14,373 nucleotides of DNA, taken from the IMG/VR virus record IMGVR_UViG_2534681703_000013; one strand, 5' to 3'. A model generated the notes under the pieces. That model was given only the letters and a program-made list of their open reading frames with translations. It was not told the DNA's origin and ran no database searches. The stretch is from a virus (lineage: Duplodnaviria > Heunggongvirae > Uroviricota > Caudoviricetes). Positions 1 to 14,373 of this stretch are shown in pieces (the stretch's first letter is position 1; every line of letters begins with the position of its first letter). A program made the translations under genes and the position numbers.

Positions 1-938
1 GCTCATTGCGGACAAAGACCTTTGCCACTTTCTCAATATCACCCAGCGACCCGACGTTCTCCGGCTTGCCGCCCATCAACTGAAAGGGGATGCGGTGCGC
101 GTCCAGCAGGTCAGCGGCGCTGGCTTTTTTGATATTAAAAAAATCGTCCTTCGTTGCCACTTCACTGAGCGGGATAATTTTAATGCCGTCAGCTTTCCCC
201 TGCGGGGCATAGAGAAACAGATTTTTAAAGTTGTTGCGGCCTTTCGACTTAACCATGTTTTCGCGAAGCATTTCGTATATCGTTGCGGTCCTGCACGGCA
301 TCGGTGACGTACATGATATATCCGGCATGAGCGCCGTTTTCGTAATACTTGCGGCGGAACAGCGTGGCCGACTCATTCAGCCAGGCAGAGTTAAGGGCGC
401 TGAGATATTCCGGCAGGCCGTACAGCTCCTGATTAATATCCGGCTCCAGCAGGTGAAACACGGAGCCGGGCGCGAAAGGTGTCGGCTCGTTGAAGGACGG
501 CACCCACCAGTAAACATCCTCCTCCACGCCACGGCGGGTATATTTTGCCGGTGAGGTTTCCAGTCTGATGACCTTACCGGTGGTGCTGTAACGCTTTTCC
601 AGAAACGCATTACCGAACACCAGAAAATCCAGCACAAAGCGGCTGAAATCCTGCTGGGAAAGCCACGGATGCGGGATAAATGTTGAGGCCAGAATATTAC
701 GTTTGACGTAAATCGGTGAGCTGTGATGCACGGCAGCACGCAGGCTTTTTGCCAGACCGGTAAAGCTGACCGGCGGCTCATACCATCTGCCGTTACTGAT
801 GCACTCGACGTAATCCAGAATGTCACGGCGGTCGAGTACCGGCACCGGCTCGCCAAAGGTGAATGCCTCCATTTTCGGGGCGCTGGCGGTCATTGTTTTT
901 GCCGCAGGTTGCGGTGTTTTCCCTTTTTTCTTGCTCAT
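1..938 (-). pseudogene. Q: Portal protein gpQ, partial at window start and frame-disrupted. N-terminal 229 codons are ORF 249..938; the C-terminal part continues in another frame from about 274 to beyond position 1.
   Basis: ORF track 249..938 (MSKKKGKTPQPAAKTMTAS...) matches recalled P2 gpQ N-terminus (P2 gpQ about 344 aa from memory). My translation of the minus strand 1..274 in a second frame gives an open, protein-like continuation (YEMLRENMVKSKGRNNFKNLFLYAPQGKADGIKIIPLSEVATKDDFFNIKKASAADLLDAHRIPFQLMGGKPENVGSLGDIEKVAKVFVRNE...). Start ATG is at 936-938 and shares one base with the P stop (TGATG). Confidence 0.8.
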
Positions 939-2714
939 CAGTAAAACTCCAGAATGGTGGATGTCAGCGGGGTGCTGATACCGGCGGTGAGTGGCTCATT
1001 TAACAGAGCGTGCATGGTCGCCCAGGCGAGGTCGGCGTGGCTGGCTTCCTCGCTGCGGCTGGCCTCATAGGTGGCGCTGCGTCCGCTGCTGGTCATGGTC
1101 TTGCGGATAGCCATAAACGAGCTGGTGATGTCGGTGGCGCTGACGTCATATTCCAGACAGCCACGGCGGATAACGTCTTTTGCCTTGAGCACCATTGCGG
1201 TTTTCATTTCCGGCGTGTAGCGGATATCGCGCGCGGCGGGATAGAACGAGCGCACGAGCTGGAACACGCCGACACCGAGGCCGGTGGCATCAATACCGAT
1301 GTATTCAACGTTATATTTTTCGGTGAGTTTGCGGATGGATTCTGCCTGGGTGGCAAAGTCCATGCCTTTCCACTGGTGACGCTCAAGTATTCTGAATTTG
1401 CCACCGGCCACCACCGGCGGTGCCAGCACCACGCATCCGGCGCTGTCGCCACGGTGTGACGGGTCGTAACCAATCCAGACCGGGCGGGAGCCGAACGGAT
1501 TGGTGGCAAACGGCGCATAGTCTTCCCATTCTTCCAGCGTGTCGACCATGCAGCGTTGCAGCTCCTCGAACGGGAACACCGACGCCTTGTCGTCAACAAA
1601 TTCACACATGAACAGGTTTTTAAAATCGTCGGCGCTGTTTTCACGTTTGAGCTGCTCAATGTCGAACAGTGTGCAGCCACCTTTCAGGGCGTCCTCAATG
1701 GTGACAATCTGCCGCCACTGGCCGTCCGCACAGAGAAGCCCACCGGCAAGGGCGTTATGACTGACGTCGATTTCCACGCGTTCGGCGGCGCTGGCGCGTC
1801 CCCGGTTAAACAGTTCACCTGACCAGAACGGATAGGCGTCGTGCGCCAGCGTGGACGGGGTGGAGAAATAGGTCGAGCGCAGGTGACTCTGTGAGGCCAT
1901 ACCTGATGCCACCTTACGCAGTACCTGAAAATTCGGGATCCAGAAAATCTCGTCGACGTACAGGTCACCGTTATGGCTCTGTGCGGTGTTGGAGTTGGTG
2001 CCGAGAAAAATCAGTTTTGCGCCGTTATTGCCCAGGACAATCGGGTCACCGGTCAGGTCAACGTCAACCAGCCGGGCAAAGGCGATGATGTATTCGCGGA
2101 ACACATACGCCTGCGTTTTACTGGCCGACAGAAAAATCTGGTTATGACCGGTTTTCAGGGCGCGCAGCAGCGCCTCGCGGGAAAAATAAAACGTTGCGCC
2201 AATCTGGCGGGATTTCAGGATATCGCGGATGCGGTGCTCAAGCCCGGCGCGATACCAGTGCAACTGATAGTCGAAAGACTGCTCAAAGAAAATCTGCTCC
2301 AGCTTTTCGATGGCCTCGTCACTGAAAAAATTCTTTTTCGGTTTGCGACGCCCGCCTTTGTTGCGGTTAGCGACGTTCGGATTAAGGTCTGCCTCGTTGC
2401 CGGTCTGACTGTAACGGTTGACCCGTGCCAGTCGTTCAATCTGGCGTCCGAGCAGGTCAATTTCCTTGAAGTCACCGCCGGTTTTCTGCGGTTTGATGAT
2501 GAGCTGGGTCAGCCGCGCTTCCAGACTCATTTCGACACGGCTGATGGGGGCAACGCTGTCCCAGCCGTCGCGCTGTTTCCAGCTCTGCACCGTCGGGCGT
2601 TTCATCTGCAACATGGCGGCGATCCTGCGGCACGGAAAATCCCTGCCCAGTACCGAGCAGCGCCGCCTGACGACGCGGGTCGTGTAAAAGAGTGGTGTCT
2701 GTGGTGATGGTCAT
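938..2714 (-). CDS. P: Terminase large (ATPase) subunit gpP. The 558-codon ORF 938..2614 is intact, but the likely true N-terminus (ATG at 2712-2714, GAGGT Shine-Dalgarno) is in a different frame, implying a 1-bp indel near 2624-2625.
   Basis: ORF track 938..2614 (558 aa) matches recalled P2 gpP. Frame of ORF 2472..2744 reads MTITTDTTLLHDPRRQAALLGTGQGFSVPQ and then the P frame reads IAAMLQMKRPTVQSW, together a helix-turn-helix-like N-terminus. Spliced length about 591 aa versus about 590 recalled for P2. Confidence 0.85.
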
Positions 2715-2887
2715 GAATACCTCGCCGTGATGAATACACGGCAAGGCTACTGAGTCGCGTCCCGCGATTCGCTAAGGTGCTGTTGTGTCAGTGATAAGCC
2801 ATCCGGGACTGATGGCGGAGGATGCGCATCGTCGGGAAACTGATGCCGACATGTGACTCCTCTAATCACTATTCAGGACTCCTGACA
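2715..2887. promoter_or_regulatory. Divergent late-promoter region between P (leftward) and O (rightward). Contains an imperfect dyad TGT-N12-CCA at 2784..2801 resembling the TGT-N12-ACA activator element of P2 late promoters.
   Basis: 173-bp gap between divergent start codons. Dyad tgtGTCAGTGATAAGcca read directly; its centre lies about 78 nt upstream of the P start codon. Role by analogy to Ogr-dependent P2 late promoters (established knowledge); exact -10 and +1 not determined. Confidence 0.45.
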
Positions 2888-3742
2888 ATGGCAAAAAAAG
2901 TCTCAAAATTCTTTCGTATCGGCGTTGAGGGTGACACCTGTGACGGGCGTGTCATCAGTGCGCAGGATATTCAGGAAATGGCCGAAACCTTTGACCCGCG
3001 TGTCTATGGTTGCCGCATTAACCTGGAACATCTGCGCGGCATCCTGCCTGACGGTATTTTTAAGCGTTATGGCGATGTGGCCGAACTGAAGGCCGAAAAG
3101 ATTGACGATGATTCGGCGCTGAAAGGCAAATGGGCGCTGTTTGCGAAAATCACCCCGACCGATGACCTTATCGCGATGAACAAGGCCGCGCAGAAGGTCT
3201 ACACCTCAATGGAAATTCAGCCGAACTTTGCCAACACCGGCAAATGTTATCTGGTGGGGCTGGCCGTCACCGATGACCCGGCAAGCCTCGGCACGGAATA
3301 CCTGGAATTCTGCCGCACGGCAAAACACAACCCCCTGAACCGCTTCAAATTAAGCCCTGAAAACCTGATTTCAGTGGCAACGCCTGTTGAGCTGGAATTT
3401 GAAGACCTGCCTGAAACCGTGTTCACCGCCCTGACTGAAAAGGTGAAATCCATTTTTGGCCGCAAACAGGCCAGCGATGACGCCCGCCTGAATGACGTGC
3501 ATGAAGCGGTGACCGCTGTTGCTGAACATGTGCAGGAAAAACTGAGTGCCACTGAGCAGCGCCTCGCTGAGATGGAAAACGCCTTTTCCGCACTTAAGCA
3601 GGAGGTGACTGACAGGGCGGATGAAACCAGCCAGGCATTCACCCGCCTGAAAAACAGTCTCGACCACACCGAAAGTCTGACCCAGCAGCGCCGCAGCAAG
3701 GCCACCGGCGGTGGCGGTGACGCCCTGATGACGAACTGCTGA
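2888..3742 (+). CDS. O: Capsid scaffolding protein gpO (284 aa). ORF-track start at 2822 is an upstream extension; ATG at 2888 gives MAKKVSKFFRIGVEGDT.
   Basis: ORF track 2822..3742; internal start gives 284 aa, the length recalled for P2 gpO, with a recognisable N-terminus. Confidence 0.9.
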   Translation: MAKKVSKFFRIGVEGDTCDGRVISAQDIQEMAETFDPRVYGCRINLEHLRGILPDGIFKRYGDVAELKAEKIDDDSALKGKWALFAKITPTDDLIAMNKAAQKVYTSMEIQPNFANTGKCYLVGLAVTDDPASLGTEYLEFCRTAKHNPLNRFKLSPENLISVATPVELEFEDLPETVFTALTEKVKSIFGRKQASDDARLNDVHEAVTAVAEHVQEKLSATEQRLAEMENAFSALKQEVTDRADETSQAFTRLKNSLDHTESLTQQRRSKATGGGGDALMTNC

Positions 3743-3796
3743 CCGGCGTCAGTCCAGGAAAACCTTCACGATTAACCCTTAATTTCAGGAATAACT

Positions 3797-4870
3797 ATGC
3801 GCCAGGAAACCCGCTTTAAATTTAATGCCTACCTGTCCCGTGTTGCCGAACTGAACGGCATCGACGCCGGTGATGTGTCGAAAAAATTCACCGTTGAACC
3901 GTCGGTCACCCAGACCCTGATGAACACCATGCAGGAGTCCTCTGACTTTCTGACCCGCATCAACATTGTGCCGGTCAGCGAAATGAAAGGGGAAAAAATT
4001 GGTATTGGTGTCACCGGCTCCATCGCCAGCACCACCGACACCGCCGGTGGCACCGAGCGTCAGCCGAAGGACTTCTCGAAGCTGGCGTCAAACAAGTACG
4101 AATGCGACCAGATTAACTTCGATTTTTATATCCGCTACAAAACGCTTGACCTGTGGGCGCGTTATCAGGATTTCCAGCTCCGTATCCGTAACGCCATTAT
4201 CAAACGCCAGTCCCTTGATTTAATCATGGCCGGTTTTAACGGCGTGAGGCGTGCCGAAACCTCTGACCGCAGCAGTAATCCGATGCTGCAGGATGTGGCG
4301 GTCGGCTGGCTGCAGAAATACCGCAATGAAGCCCCGGCGCGCGTGATGAGCAAGGTCACTGACGAGGAAGGGCACACCACCTCTGAGGTTATCCGCGTGG
4401 GTAAGGGCGGTGATTATGCCAGCCTTGATGCACTGGTGATGGATGCGACCAACAACCTGATTGAGCCGTGGTATCAGGAAGACCCTGACCTTGTGGTGAT
4501 TGTGGGGCGTCAGCTACTGGCGGACAAGTATTTCCCCATCGTCAACAAGGAGCAGGACAACAGCGAAATGCTGGCCGCTGACGTCATCATCAGCCAGAAA
4601 CGCATCGGTAACCTGCCGGCGGTACGCGTCCCGTACTTCCCGGCGGATGCGATGCTCATCACGAAGCTGGAAAACCTGTCCATCTACTACATGGATGACA
4701 GCCATCGCCGCGTGATTGAGGAAAACCCGAAACTCGACCGCGTGGAGAACTACGAGTCAATGAACATTGATTACGTGGTGGAAGACTACGCCGCCGGTTG
4801 TCTGGTGGAAAAAATTAAGGTCGGTGACTTCTCCACACCGACTAAAGTGACCGCAGAGCCGGGAGCGTAA
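3797..4870 (+). CDS. N: Major capsid protein gpN (357 aa).
   Basis: ORF track 3797..4870; sequence and length match recalled P2 gpN; AGGA ribosome-binding site upstream. Confidence 0.93.
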   Translation: MRQETRFKFNAYLSRVAELNGIDAGDVSKKFTVEPSVTQTLMNTMQESSDFLTRINIVPVSEMKGEKIGIGVTGSIASTTDTAGGTERQPKDFSKLASNKYECDQINFDFYIRYKTLDLWARYQDFQLRIRNAIIKRQSLDLIMAGFNGVRRAETSDRSSNPMLQDVAVGWLQKYRNEAPARVMSKVTDEEGHTTSEVIRVGKGGDYASLDALVMDATNNLIEPWYQEDPDLVVIVGRQLLADKYFPIVNKEQDNSEMLAADVIISQKRIGNLPAVRVPYFPADAMLITKLENLSIYYMDDSHRRVIEENPKLDRVENYESMNIDYVVEDYAAGCLVEKIKVGDFSTPTKVTAEPGA

Positions 4871-4873
4871 CCG

Positions 4874-5617
4874 ATGACGAGTCCCGCACAGCGCCACATG
4901 ATGCGGGTCTCGGCAGCGATGACCGCGCAGCGGGACGCCGCCCCGCTGCGACATGCAACTGTCTATGAGCAGATGCTGGTCAAGCTGGCCGCAGACCAGC
5001 GCACACTGAAAGCGATTTATTCAAAAGAGCTGAAGGCCGCGAAAAAACGCGAACTGCTGCCGTTCTGGTTGCCGTGGGTGAACGGCGTGCTGGAGCAGGG
5101 CAAAGGTGCACAGGATGACATTCTGATGACGGTCATGCTGTGGCGTCTGGATACCGGCGATATTGCCGGTGCGCTGGAGATTGCCCGTTATGCCCTGAAG
5201 TACGGTCTGACCATGCCGGGTAAACACCGCCGCACCCCGCCGTACATGTTCACCGAGGAGGTGGCGCTCGCGGCCATGCGCGCCCACGCTGCCGGTGAGT
5301 CTGTGGATACCCGCCTGCTGACGGAGACCCTTGCACTGACCGCCACGGCAGACATGCCTGATGAAGTGCGCGCAAAGCTGCACAAAATCACCGGTCTGTT
5401 TCTGCGTGACGCTGGTGATGCCGCCGGTGCGCTGGCGCACCTGCAACGTGCGACACAGCTCGACTGTCAGGCAGGCGTCAAAAAAGAGATTGAACGACTG
5501 GAGCGGGAGCTGAAACCGAAGCCGGAGCCGCAGCCAAAAGCGGCCACCCGCGCCCCGCGTAAGACCCGGAGCGTGACACCGGCAAAACGTGGACGCCCGA
5601 AAAAGAAAGCCAGTTAA
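4874..5617 (+). CDS. M: Terminase small/endonuclease subunit gpM (247 aa), with a basic KR-rich C-terminus.
   Basis: ORF track 4874..5617; length and sequence match recalled P2 gpM; starts 4 nt after the N stop. Confidence 0.9.
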   Translation: MTSPAQRHMMRVSAAMTAQRDAAPLRHATVYEQMLVKLAADQRTLKAIYSKELKAAKKRELLPFWLPWVNGVLEQGKGAQDDILMTVMLWRLDTGDIAGALEIARYALKYGLTMPGKHRRTPPYMFTEEVALAAMRAHAAGESVDTRLLTETLALTATADMPDEVRAKLHKITGLFLRDAGDAAGALAHLQRATQLDCQAGVKKEIERLERELKPKPEPQPKAATRAPRKTRSVTPAKRGRPKKKAS

Positions 5618-5716
5618 CAACCGAATGCGCCCCGCGCCAGGGCGGCACGCCGGTCAGTGAGGGTGAATCACCTGACACTGCACCGGCGTCCACCGCCCGA
5701 CTTTTCAGAGGTAGTC

Positions 5717-6226
5717 ATGATGACGCTGATTATTCCGCGAAAGGAGGCTCCCGTGTCCGGTGAGGGTACGGTGGTCATCCCGCAACCGGCAGGCGACGAG
5801 CCGGTGATTAAAAACACGTTCTTTTTTCCCGATATCGACCCGAAGCGCGTCCGGGAACGTATGCGCCTTGAGCAGACCGTCGCCCCCGCCCGTCTGCGTG
5901 AGGCCATCAAGTCAGGCATGGCGGAGACGAATGCGGAGCTGTACGAGTACCGCGAACAGAAAATTGCCGCCGGTTTTACGCGTCTGGCGGACGTCCCGGC
6001 GGACGACATCGACGGTGAAAGCATCAAAGTTTTTTACTACGAGCGCGCCGTGTGTGCGATGGCGACCGCGTCGCTTTATGAGCGTTATCGCGGCGTGGAT
6101 GCCAGTGCGAAAGGCGACAAGAAGGCTGACAGCATTGACAGCACCATTGATGAGCTGTGGCGGGATATGCGCTGGGCGGTGGCGCGTATCCAGGACAAGC
6201 CGCGCTGCATCGTGAGTCAAATCTGA
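5717..6226 (+). CDS. L: Head completion/stabilisation protein gpL (169 aa). ORF-track start at 5657 is an upstream extension; ATG at 5717 (MMTLIIPRKEAP) follows a GAGGT Shine-Dalgarno.
   Basis: ORF track 5657..6226; internal ATG gives 169 aa, the P2 gpL length; stop overlaps the X start (TGATG). Confidence 0.88.
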   Translation: MMTLIIPRKEAPVSGEGTVVIPQPAGDEPVIKNTFFFPDIDPKRVRERMRLEQTVAPARLREAIKSGMAETNAELYEYREQKIAAGFTRLADVPADDIDGESIKVFYYERAVCAMATASLYERYRGVDASAKGDKKADSIDSTIDELWRDMRWAVARIQDKPRCIVSQI

Positions 6227-6429
6227 TGAAGACCTTTGCGCTACAGGGCGACACGCTCGACGCCATTTGTGTCCGGTATTACGGGCGCACTGAGGGCGTG
6301 GTTGAGACCGTGCTCGCCGCAAATCCGGGACTGGCTGAACTGGGCGCGGTGCTGCCACACGGCACCGCCGTCGAACTGCCCGACGTTCAGACCGCGCCCG
6401 TGGCTGAAACTGTCAATCTGTGGGAGTAA
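6226..6429 (+). CDS. X: Tail protein gpX (67 aa, LysM-like).
   Basis: ORF track 6157..6429 contains MKTFALQGDTLDAICVRYYGRTEG... starting at 6226; 67 aa matches P2 gpX. Confidence 0.88.
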   Translation: MKTFALQGDTLDAICVRYYGRTEGVVETVLAANPGLAELGAVLPHGTAVELPDVQTAPVAETVNLWE

Positions 6430-6432
6430 CGC

Positions 6433-6714
6433 ATGACAGCAGAAGAAAAAAGCGTCCTGTCGCTTTTCATGATTGGGGTGCTGATTGTTGTCGGCAAGGT
6501 GCTTGCCGGTGGTGAACCCATCACCCCGCGTCTGTTTATCGGGCGCATGTTGCTCGGTGGTTTTGTCTCGATGGTTGCCGGTGTTGTTCTGGTGCAGTTT
6601 CCTGACCTGTCACTGCCTGCGGTGTGCGGCATCGGCTCCATGCTGGGTATCGCCGGTTATCAGGTGATTGAGATTGCCATTCAGCGCCGCTTTAAGGGCA
6701 GGGGGAAACCGTAA
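6433..6714 (+). CDS. Y: Holin gpY (93 aa).
   Basis: ORF track 6433..6714; hydrophobic segments plus charged C-terminus (RRFKGRGKP); length matches P2 gpY. Confidence 0.9.
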   Translation: MTAEEKSVLSLFMIGVLIVVGKVLAGGEPITPRLFIGRMLLGGFVSMVAGVVLVQFPDLSLPAVCGIGSMLGIAGYQVIEIAIQRRFKGRGKP

Positions 6715-7211
6715 TGCCGGTAATTAACACGCATCAGAATATCGCCGCCTTTCTCGACATGCTGGCCGTGTCCGAAGGGACGGCGAATCATCCGCTGACG
6801 AAAAACCGGGGCTATGACGTGATAGTCACCGGACTGGACGGAAAGCCGGAAATTTTCACCGACTACAGTGACCACCCGTTCGCGCATGGCCGACCGGCGA
6901 AGGTGTTTAACCGTCGCGGTGAAAAATCCACGGCCTCCGGTCGCTATCAGCAGCTTTACCTGTTCTGGCCGCACTACCGCAAACAGCTTGCCCTGCCGGA
7001 TTTCAGTCCGTTGTCACAGGACAGACTCGCCATTCAGTTGATCCGCGAACGCGGTGCACTGGATGACATCCGGGCGGGACGCATTGAGCGCGCCATTTCA
7101 CGCTGTCGCAATATCTGGGCGTCCCTGCCGGGTGCCGGTTACGGTCAGCGTGAGCATTCACTGGAAAAACTGGTCACCGTCTGGCGTACTGCTGGCGGCG
7201 TACCGGCTTAA
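6714..7211 (+). CDS. K: Endolysin gpK (165 aa).
   Basis: ORF track 6714..7211; matches recalled P2 gpK; start overlaps the Y stop (TAATG). Confidence 0.9.
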   Translation: MPVINTHQNIAAFLDMLAVSEGTANHPLTKNRGYDVIVTGLDGKPEIFTDYSDHPFAHGRPAKVFNRRGEKSTASGRYQQLYLFWPHYRKQLALPDFSPLSQDRLAIQLIRERGALDDIRAGRIERAISRCRNIWASLPGAGYGQREHSLEKLVTVWRTAGGVPA

Positions 7212-7225
7212 ACGGAGTAAACACC

Positions 7226-7651
7226 ATGAAGAAATTATCCCTTTCACTGATGCTGAACGTGTCGCTGGCGCTGATGTTGGCACTGTCCCTGATTTACCCG
7301 CAGAGCGTAGCCGTCAATTTTGTCGCTGCCTGGGCGATTCTGGCGACGGTTATCTGTGTGGTTGCCGGTGGTGTCGGCGTGTATGCCACTGAGTATGTGC
7401 TGGAACGCTACGGGCGGGAGCTGCCGCCGGAATCGCTGGCCGTGAAGATTGTCACGGCGCTGTTTTTGCAGCCGGTGCCGTGGCGCAGACGGGCGGCGGC
7501 TCTGGTGGTGATGGTGGTGACGTTTATCTCGCTGGTCGCTGCCGGGTGGATTTTTACTGCGCTGATTTACCTCGTGGCGTCGCTGTTTTTCCGGCTGATA
7601 CGTACGGCCTGCCGTCAGCGTTTTGAGGGGCGGGAACCATGTCAAAACTGA
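7226..7651 (+). CDS. lysA: LysA, membrane protein affecting lysis timing (141 aa).
   Basis: ORF track 7226..7651; multiple hydrophobic helices; position and length as in P2. Confidence 0.85.
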   Translation: MKKLSLSLMLNVSLALMLALSLIYPQSVAVNFVAAWAILATVICVVAGGVGVYATEYVLERYGRELPPESLAVKIVTALFLQPVPWRRRAAALVVMVVTFISLVAAGWIFTALIYLVASLFFRLIRTACRQRFEGREPCQN

Positions 7652-8082
7652 TGATTGTGCTGGTTGTGTTGTTATCACTGGCGGTGGCGGGGCTGTTTCT
7701 GGCGAAGCATGAAAACGCCAGCCTGCGCGCCTCGCTGGACAGGGCGAACAACGTCGCCAGCGGGCAGCAGACGACCATCACCGTGCTGAAAAATCAGCTT
7801 CATGTTGCCCTCACCAGGGCAGACAAAAACGAGCTGGCGCAGGTGGCTCTGCGTCAGGAACTGGAGAACGCCGCGAAGCGTGAAGCACAGCGCGAGAAAA
7901 CCATCACGAGGTTACTTAATGAAAACGAAGATTTTCGCCGCTGGTACGGCGCTGACCTGCCTGATGCTGTGCGCCGGTTGCACCAGCGCCCCGCCTGCAC
8001 CGACGCCAGTGATTGTCCACAACGCCTGCCCGAAAGTGAGTCTTTGCCCGATGCCGGGCAGCGACCCGGAGACGAACGGTGA
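7639..8082 (+). CDS. lysB: LysB, Rz-like inner-membrane spanin (147 aa) with N-terminal transmembrane segment and coiled-coil region.
   Basis: ORF track 7639..8082; N-terminal hydrophobic stretch MSKLMIVLVVLLSLAVAGLFLA; position after lysA. Confidence 0.85.
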   Translation: MSKLMIVLVVLLSLAVAGLFLAKHENASLRASLDRANNVASGQQTTITVLKNQLHVALTRADKNELAQVALRQELENAAKREAQREKTITRLLNENEDFRRWYGADLPDAVRRLHQRPACTDASDCPQRLPESESLPDAGQRPGDER

Positions 8083-8209
8083 TTTAAGTGCCGATATCCG
8101 GCAGCTTGAGAACGCGCTGGCGCGCTGTGCCAGCCAGGTAAAAATGATTAAATACTGTCAGGACGAAAACGATGCTCAAACCCGACAGCCTGCGCAGGGC
8201 GCTGACTGA
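7919..8209 (+). CDS. lysC: LysC, Rz1-like outer-membrane lipoprotein spanin (96 aa), nested in the +1 frame of lysB and extending past it.
   Basis: Within ORF 7802..8209, ATG at 7919 gives MKTKIFAAGTALTCLMLCAGC with a lipobox-like LCAGC; proline-rich after the Cys; 96 aa as recalled for P2 LysC. Confidence 0.8.
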   Translation: MKTKIFAAGTALTCLMLCAGCTSAPPAPTPVIVHNACPKVSLCPMPGSDPETNGDLSADIRQLENALARCASQVKMIKYCQDENDAQTRQPAQGAD

Positions 8210-8639
8210 TGCCGTCACGGTGCTGAAAACTAACCCCGATATGCTGCGGATATTCGTGGATAACGGGAGTATTGCCTCCACGCTGGCGGCGTCGTTGTCA
8301 TTCGAAAAGCGTTACACGCTCAATGTCATTGTGACCGACTTTACCGGTGATTTTGACCTGCTCATTGTGCCAGTGCTGGCGTGGCTGCGGGAAAATCAGC
8401 CCGACATCATGACCACTGACGAAGGTCAGAAAAAGGGCTTCACGTTTTATGCAGACATCAACAATGACAGCAGCTTTGATATCAGTATCAGCCTGATGCT
8501 GACCGAGCGCACGCTGGTCAGTGAGGTGGACGGCGCACTGCATGTGAAGAATATCCCGGAACCTCCGCCGCCGGAGCCGGTCACCCGCCCGGTGGAGCTT
8601 TATATCAATGGCGAACTGGTGAGCAAGTGGGATGAATGA
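8172..8639 (+). CDS. R: Tail completion protein gpR (155 aa).
   Basis: ORF track 8172..8639; matches recalled P2 gpR length and sequence. Confidence 0.88.
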   Translation: MLKPDSLRRALTDAVTVLKTNPDMLRIFVDNGSIASTLAASLSFEKRYTLNVIVTDFTGDFDLLIVPVLAWLRENQPDIMTTDEGQKKGFTFYADINNDSSFDISISLMLTERTLVSEVDGALHVKNIPEPPPPEPVTRPVELYINGELVSKWDE

Positions 8640-13993: not shown

Positions 13994-14373
13994 TTATCTC
14001 CCTTTCGCTATATAGCAAAGATTAAACCCACCGACGCCTGACATACGGGCTGTAAAACCCGTTCTTGAAGTACCAGTTGAGTTAACTCCATAAGCAGGCA
14101 TGGTTGTTGGAGAAAGCAGAGACTCCTGGATATCTGCCATTGTCAGTGTAATTGATTCGACCCGCGCGGGGAAAGGTAGCGGGAAAACAACATTCGTCCC
14201 TGTCTGTCCAACGGGGAAACCGAAAATACCCCATTGTCGTAATTACCCCTTCCGGCCCCTTACTCCATCCAGATTTAGGAATCGGCCAGTCTGCTGCTCC
14301 AGAGTGCCCCGTTGTAAAACTACTCATATCTGGTACTTGCCCGGTATCCGTTCCGACGTTCCTCGTTGCCGCT
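13994..14373 (-). CDS. Alternative tail-fibre C-terminal exon (Sv'-like), partial: open from beyond the window end. Two frames are open; the likely real C-terminus (...FPVGQTGTNVVFPLPFPARVESITLTMADIQESLLSPTTMPAYGVNSTGTSRTGFTARMSGVGGFNLCYIAKGR) ends at 13994, 4 nt before the Tfa' start.
   Basis: ORF track 14082..14327 is in a frame with no stop up to position 14373 (AATRNVGTDTGQVPDMSSFTTGHSGAADWPIPKSGW...). A second frame is open 13994..14242 and ends immediately upstream of Tfa'. Implies a 1-bp indel between 14085 and 14242. Confidence 0.55.

Follow-up and report, generated by a model that had tools for sequence, protein, structure and literature searches.

The large terminase subunit of phage P2, gpP (VPP_BPP2), is a protein of 590 amino acids, and in P2 and its Peduovirus orthologues the Q and P genes lie on one strand, with O, N, M and L divergent from them. 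Another P2 product, the tail chaperone E+E', is made by a programmed −1 frameshift. Sites of programmed frameshifting carry a conserved slippery sequence and are found in all relatives. Public assemblies also contain split or truncated gpP genes that result from errors of base calling or assembly, and singleton frameshifts of this gene are common there.

Here we describe a gpP gene with a broken reading frame. The window, the whole stretch of DNA analyzed, comprises 14,373 bp and is identical with contig AQEY01000031.1 of the draft genome of Escherichia coli ETEC MP020980.2. This ETEC strain comes from Bangladesh, and its genome was assembled by Celera Assembler from Illumina HiSeq 2000 100-bp reads (PMC5469772). 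The window covers the late region of a Peduovirus (P2-like) prophage. Its DNA is 97 to 99% identical to that of many phages and prophages, and its gene order matches that of P2: Q and P run leftward, while O, N, M, L and the lysis, tail and baseplate genes run rightward, followed by H and G, which encode the tail fibre, and by a portion of an invertible fibre segment. The contig stops inside that segment, and relatives carry a Resolvase-family invertase gene just past this point. Between O and N, at positions 3748 to 3756, the window is one unit short of most relatives in a tandem GTCA/AGTC tetranucleotide repeat; this 4-nt difference (at about 3750) is shared by a sibling isolate and thus represents a real copy-number polymorphism.

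The terminase gene as written and as repaired

Gene P occupies positions 938 to 2714 on the minus strand and is frame-disrupted as written. Its native start is the ATG at 2714-2712, which is preceded by a GAGGT Shine-Dalgarno sequence, and its stop codon lies at 940-938. An earlier, sequence-only reading of this DNA had proposed that the frame opened by this ATG drifts out of register, and translation of the minus strand confirmed this: the frame reads MTITTDTTLLHDPRRQAALLGTGQGFSVPQ and then continues with out-of-frame residues. The resulting upstream open reading frame of 80 amino acids (2472 to 2714, minus strand) extends from the native start to a stop codon at 2474-2472 and consists of 20 native residues, GTG, 7 further native residues and 50 out-of-frame residues. 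It gave zero Pfam matches, and no identical sequence is on record in the protein collection searched. Shifted by one base, translation gives ...RRIAAMLQMKRPTVQSW... and meets no stop codon before the one at 940-938, the gpP-frame continuation past the break being IAAMLQMKRPTVQSW. As that reading had also held, the sole start available to this long open reading frame is the internal ATG at 2612-2614 (minus strand), which is Met33 of gpP and yields 558 amino acids in place of the native 590. The 558-amino-acid product is not on record either, and the deposited annotation begins P at a downstream ATG, giving a protein of 441 amino acids.

Comparison of the gene with its relatives located the break. 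When the window was aligned to P2, fiAA91-ss and E. coli W, exactly one extra base was seen at 2624-2625 (minus strand), where the window has CC and the relatives have a single C, and the comparison with 20 close relatives gave the same result. The base is missing in all 15 relatives that cover the site, so that on the coding strand the window reads CAG-G-AT and the relatives CAG-AT. The one-base disruption at this position therefore stands. However, when only this base was removed, the predicted protein had no exact match anywhere in public contigs. Two further insertions are private to the window: an extra C at 2646 to 2648 (minus strand; CCC versus CC) and an extra CG at 2653 to 2655 (minus strand; TACCGAG versus TACAG). 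Together they add three bases in frame and convert LLYWQG into LLGTGQG, replacing a conserved YW with GTG. On the coding strand, the insertions in P thus amount to four bases: CG after GCTGCT, G in TGG and G in CAG|AT.

Removal of all four bases restores a protein of 590 amino acids that is found as an exact match on approximately 400 public contigs and is one residue apart from gpP of the sibling isolate MP020980.1, a protein named VPP_BPP2 in the collection searched. The repaired protein has the same three Pfam domains as P2 gpP. Its Terminase_5/HTH domain is complete (residues 12 to 69, 95.1 bits), with the GTG variant its score falls to 75 bits, and the open reading frame from ATG 2614 retains just profile positions 22 to 58 (49.6 bits); only after repair does the protein have the full N-terminal domain of P2 gpP. 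The Terminase_6N ATPase domain (203 bits) and the Terminase_6C RNaseH-like nuclease domain (161 bits) are the same in the written and the repaired protein. The merged N terminus put forward in the sequence-only reading, a helix-turn-helix segment running into IAAMLQMKRPTVQSW, was thus correct in kind, but it retained the nonnative LLGTGQG, and the second lesion had been overlooked. Its domains, its synteny and its near-identity place the gene in the P2 gpP family, and it is an ordinary P2-type large terminase with HTH-like Terminase_5, ATPase and nuclease domains.

The segment that the break separates from the rest of the protein is a standard part of this family. In the close relatives, gpP has 590 amino acids throughout and is encoded in one continuous frame, and its N-terminal segment is conserved across 414 phage records. 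Eight terminases of distant Peduoviridae (Burkholderia, Ralstonia, Pseudomonas, Mannheimia, Salmonella, E. coli P88 and Klebsiella) were aligned, and they retain the motif D.RR.A..LYWqG upstream of Met33. Homologues that begin at MLQMKRP, which would have pointed to a natural short form, were not found: no protein among the close relatives and distant Peduoviridae examined starts at Met33.

We therefore consider it highly improbable that the break is functional, either as a programmed +1 ribosomal frameshift or as the origin of a naturally shortened terminase made from ATG 2614. Two features could be taken to favor such a role, a stable hairpin that overlaps the site and an AGGA ahead of ATG 2614. 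The hairpin is a GC-rich nested structure within the coding sequence (2615 to 2667, minus strand), with a predicted stability of −17.9 kcal/mol in the window versus −17.6 kcal/mol in E. coli W (z = −2.4 versus shuffles in E. coli W), and it is equally present in relatives whose frame is continuous. The AGGA does lie 8 nt upstream of ATG 2614, as previously pointed out, but it is created by the inserted base: the relatives, which lack it, read GCAGATTGCC, and the window reads GCAGGATCGCC. The junction CCG CAG GAT CGC contains no slippery, hungry-codon or known −1/+1 motif, which bears out the earlier observation that a slippery heptamer is absent. The extra base occurs in no relative examined and thus has zero conservation, and a two-frame arrangement was not found in the relatives, all of which have the continuous 590-amino-acid frame. 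Moreover, the upstream segment is retained in all homologues, while the upstream frame of the window additionally bears the YW-to-GTG change, with its cost in Terminase_5 score, in a conserved motif. With no shift-prone motif, no conservation and an AGGA made by the insertion itself, programmed recoding and a natural short isoform are excluded for practical purposes.

The loop and bulge of the hairpin contain all four of the extra bases. We considered a templated (quasi-palindrome) mutation and rejected it, as the hairpin is not meaningfully more stable in the window than in E. coli W and the inverted repeat is not perfected by the insertions. The hairpin is formed by the sequence that encodes the HTH region of gpP and is conserved, the equivalent in one relative (L003) lying at positions 534 to 582.

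Extra bases private to one assembly

The window's version of the insertion cluster is represented by the strings GCAGGATCGCC, CTCGGTACTGGGCAG and CAGGATCGCC. The four extra bases of P occur in none of the 20 close relatives and in none of approximately 1,700 E. coli copies. They were likewise absent from 88 phage records and 1,513 complete-genome records of E. coli, where the best matches listed all align over 346 to 347 nt of the 350- to 351-nt query. Exact-string scans of IMG/VR with two variant strings, including a 20-mer across the extra CG, did not detect them. Among species-representative genomes, there were only three matches, chance 22-mers in unrelated bacteria without a terminase. 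On the basis of the IMG/VR and species-genome results, we rejected the idea that the window carries a natural allele acquired from some divergent phage. At the protein level, the window's junction is in no protein of the collection searched (about 15 billion sequences), and the 80-amino-acid frameshifted product used as a query matched only other, differing singleton frameshift fragments. Contigs that encode the identical 441-amino-acid product belong to other strains with homopolymer-deletion errors and lack the window's insertions.

The lesions of the window are not confined to P. In the portal gene Q (1 to 938, minus strand), a private extra T at position 276, 276 nt from the contig end, truncates the protein to 229 amino acids (stop codon at 249-251) versus 344 amino acids. 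This T is missing in all six relatives that cover the site; the deposited annotation splits the portal into two fragments, and the truncated product is EMX44409.1. Near the other end of the contig, at a distance of 136 nt, a private extra C at 14238 (minus strand) shortens the gene for an alternative tail-fibre C-terminal segment (Gp53-like_C; 13994 to 14373, minus strand) to 77 amino acids versus 142 to 143 in relatives. The other 20 genes of the window are full length.

In total, comparison with the 20 close relatives revealed 14 private substitutions, five private insertion events (at 276, 2624/5, 2648, 2653-55 and 14238) and zero private deletions. The placement of the insertions is uneven. 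Three of the five fall within 31 nt, which has a probability of ~1e-4 under random placement; if the events were independent, such clustering would hardly be expected, pointing to one event or one patch of error. Two of the three loci with private indels lie less than 300 nt from a contig end (P = 0.005).

The private substitutions show a different pattern. Of the 12 in coding sequence, counted in repaired frames, 11 are synonymous and 1 is nonsynonymous; the lineage therefore remained under purifying selection in intact frames until effectively the present. The synonymous sites include 191, downstream of the Q frameshift, and 2621, which adjoins the frameshift in P. The substitution at 2621 is a plausible natural synonymous change, so that the patch is not purely noise. 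Five insertions set against one amino acid change are not what gradual prophage decay would give, and neither the private substitutions nor the other genes, with zero private deletions, showed the relaxed selection of a decaying-prophage pseudogene. Bacterial pseudogenes are usually biased toward deletions, and a pattern of insertions only runs counter to real decay.

Two prophage copies and a probable assembly error

Positions 1 to 4003 of the window, which span Q', P, O and the 5' part of N, are repeated in the same assembly, with a second copy at the end of AQEY01000004.1, a 232-kb contig whose positions 1 to 4000 correspond to window positions 1 to 4003. The two Q-P-O copies of MP020980.2 share 98.3% identity, with 54 substitutions between them. 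The second copy joins a complete P2-like early region (int, cox, repB and A) and a chromosomal flank, and its presence implies that the strain holds two P2-like templates. In this copy, Q and the N terminus of P are intact. However, it carries private indels of its own: a deletion of TG splits P into 547 and 52 amino acids, an extra base splits O into 72 and 224 amino acids, and an A is missing from an A-run at the contig end; these indels correspond to window positions 1135, 3081 and 3998. Both contigs that cover the repeat therefore bear frame-breaking indels, private in each case and different between the two.

This prophage carries a pair of genes between gene A and the portal gene, encoding a reverse transcriptase (RVT_1, 325 amino acids) and an FRG-domain protein (454 amino acids), at 4611 to 7061 of AQEY01000004.1 and at 1434 to 3884 of APZN01000100.1. 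We take this site to be the tin/old cargo position of P2, and the pair looks like retron-type anti-phage cargo. Apart from the two sibling isolates, this exact FRG protein was seen in just one or two assemblies of read sets.

The sibling isolate MP020980.1 (APZN; contig APZN01000100.1; public read run SRR488362) comes from the same patient, and within its copy of the repeat (4495 to 8492) every gene is intact. Its unique flank is identical to that of AQEY01000004.1, with 0 differences across 4.7 kb; this flank is also all that a Logan contig (SRR446843) matches. Within the repeat, the sibling contig is mosaic, combining both copies of MP020980.2: at 52 informative sites it has 27 window alleles and 25 alleles of the other copy, and it switches between copies 18 times in 4 kb. 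Window-type alleles include C at 2315 and A at 2688. The two assemblies evidently represent a single clone, and they match perfectly in the flank but conflict within the repeat, where at least one of them must be chimeric. Compared with complete E. coli genomes, the best identities are 98.8% for the window, 99.4% for the second contig and 99.0% for the sibling, none of them exact; these values fit the divergence of 1 to 3% seen among the relatives and single out none of the three haplotypes as the natural one. The sibling lacks the P lesion, and its contig has the other-copy alleles at 2621 and 2640, at the insertion cluster. Its intact P is for this reason no proof that a window-type copy is intact at that point.

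Taken together, these observations suggest that the frame break in P and the YW-to-GTG change are probably consensus errors from short-read assembly of two near-identical prophages, a reading to which we assign a probability of roughly three in four from sequence comparison. Reads of the two copies would have been mixed during Celera assembly of the 100-bp reads, and the spurious bases would have arisen at that step; the true sequence would then encode an ordinary terminase of 590 amino acids. The affected sequence exists in more than one copy, the lesion is private to one assembly, and further private indels lie within the repeat and at contig ends, as expected of such an artifact. Counting against an assembly error, the extra CG and the extra T at 276 do not extend homopolymers, and indels are rare in Illumina reads. 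The sequence-only reading had suspected a base miscall, and an error is indeed likely, although one of assembly in a two-copy repeat is more likely than a simple homopolymer miscall.

The main competing interpretation, which we regard as unlikely, is that the extra bases are real and that one of two coresident P2-like prophages recently gained inactivating insertions in P, the portal gene and the tail-fibre segment. The insertions are present in the sequence as deposited, and with two templates in the strain the decay of one copy could be complemented; the sibling's use of other-copy alleles at 2621 and 2640 is still compatible with a lesion in the window-type copy, and the inserted base supplies ATG 2614 with an AGGA 8 nt upstream. 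That copy would make the 80-amino-acid fragment or a 558-amino-acid terminase without the first half of the HTH-like domain, and it would be packaged only with terminase and portal from the other prophage. Such a history, however, requires three insertions within 31 nt, improbable if independent, in addition to frameshifts in Q and the tail-fibre segment, and it also requires three different frameshifts in the second copy. Moreover, all of these changes are private to one assembly and missing from the sibling isolate, two of the lesions are close to the ends of the contig, and there is no other sign of decay, with the predominance of synonymous changes and the lack of deletions described above. 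A more specific version, in which the extra bases are real and the copy leans on the packaging proteins of its sibling prophage and is beginning to turn into a satellite-like or domesticated element, is less probable still. We favor assembly error, and the feature is most likely not biological.

Known systems and consequences for annotation

For annotation, the relevance of this locus is mainly one of hygiene, since a terminase of 441 amino acids and a portal in two fragments would be flagged as pseudogenes or as marks of a "defective prophage." The signature of assembly error in duplicated prophages described here consists of private indels that differ between the contigs of one repeat and lie at contig ends, alongside substitutions that are nearly all synonymous. 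If the lesion were true, it would represent one more defective copy of a P2-like prophage, which is common, and knowledge of the terminase would be unchanged.

Compared with P2 gpP, the gene in the window is distinguished by its frame-breaking base and by the net gain of three bases (YW to GTG) in the N-terminal domain. It is like programmed phage frameshifts such as that of P2 E+E' in that the full protein requires two overlapping frames to be joined, but unlike them it has no slippery motif, and the frame of its relatives is continuous. The closest parallel is with other split or truncated gpP genes in public records, in which a record-unique frameshift occurs on a single contig within an otherwise intact P2-like prophage. 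In KC618326.1, deposited as a complete phage genome, P appears as two open reading frames owing to a 1-nt indel at the equivalent of window position 2310; three assemblies with many homopolymer deletions, including one in the A-run at 2330, have the same 441-amino-acid call for a different reason; and the singleton N-terminal fragments of gpP include one from E. coli p0305293.15, another isolate whose name follows this type of project naming. Most of these split genes result from single changes in homopolymer length, whereas the window combines a cluster of three insertions, a GC-rich hairpin and a two-copy repeat.
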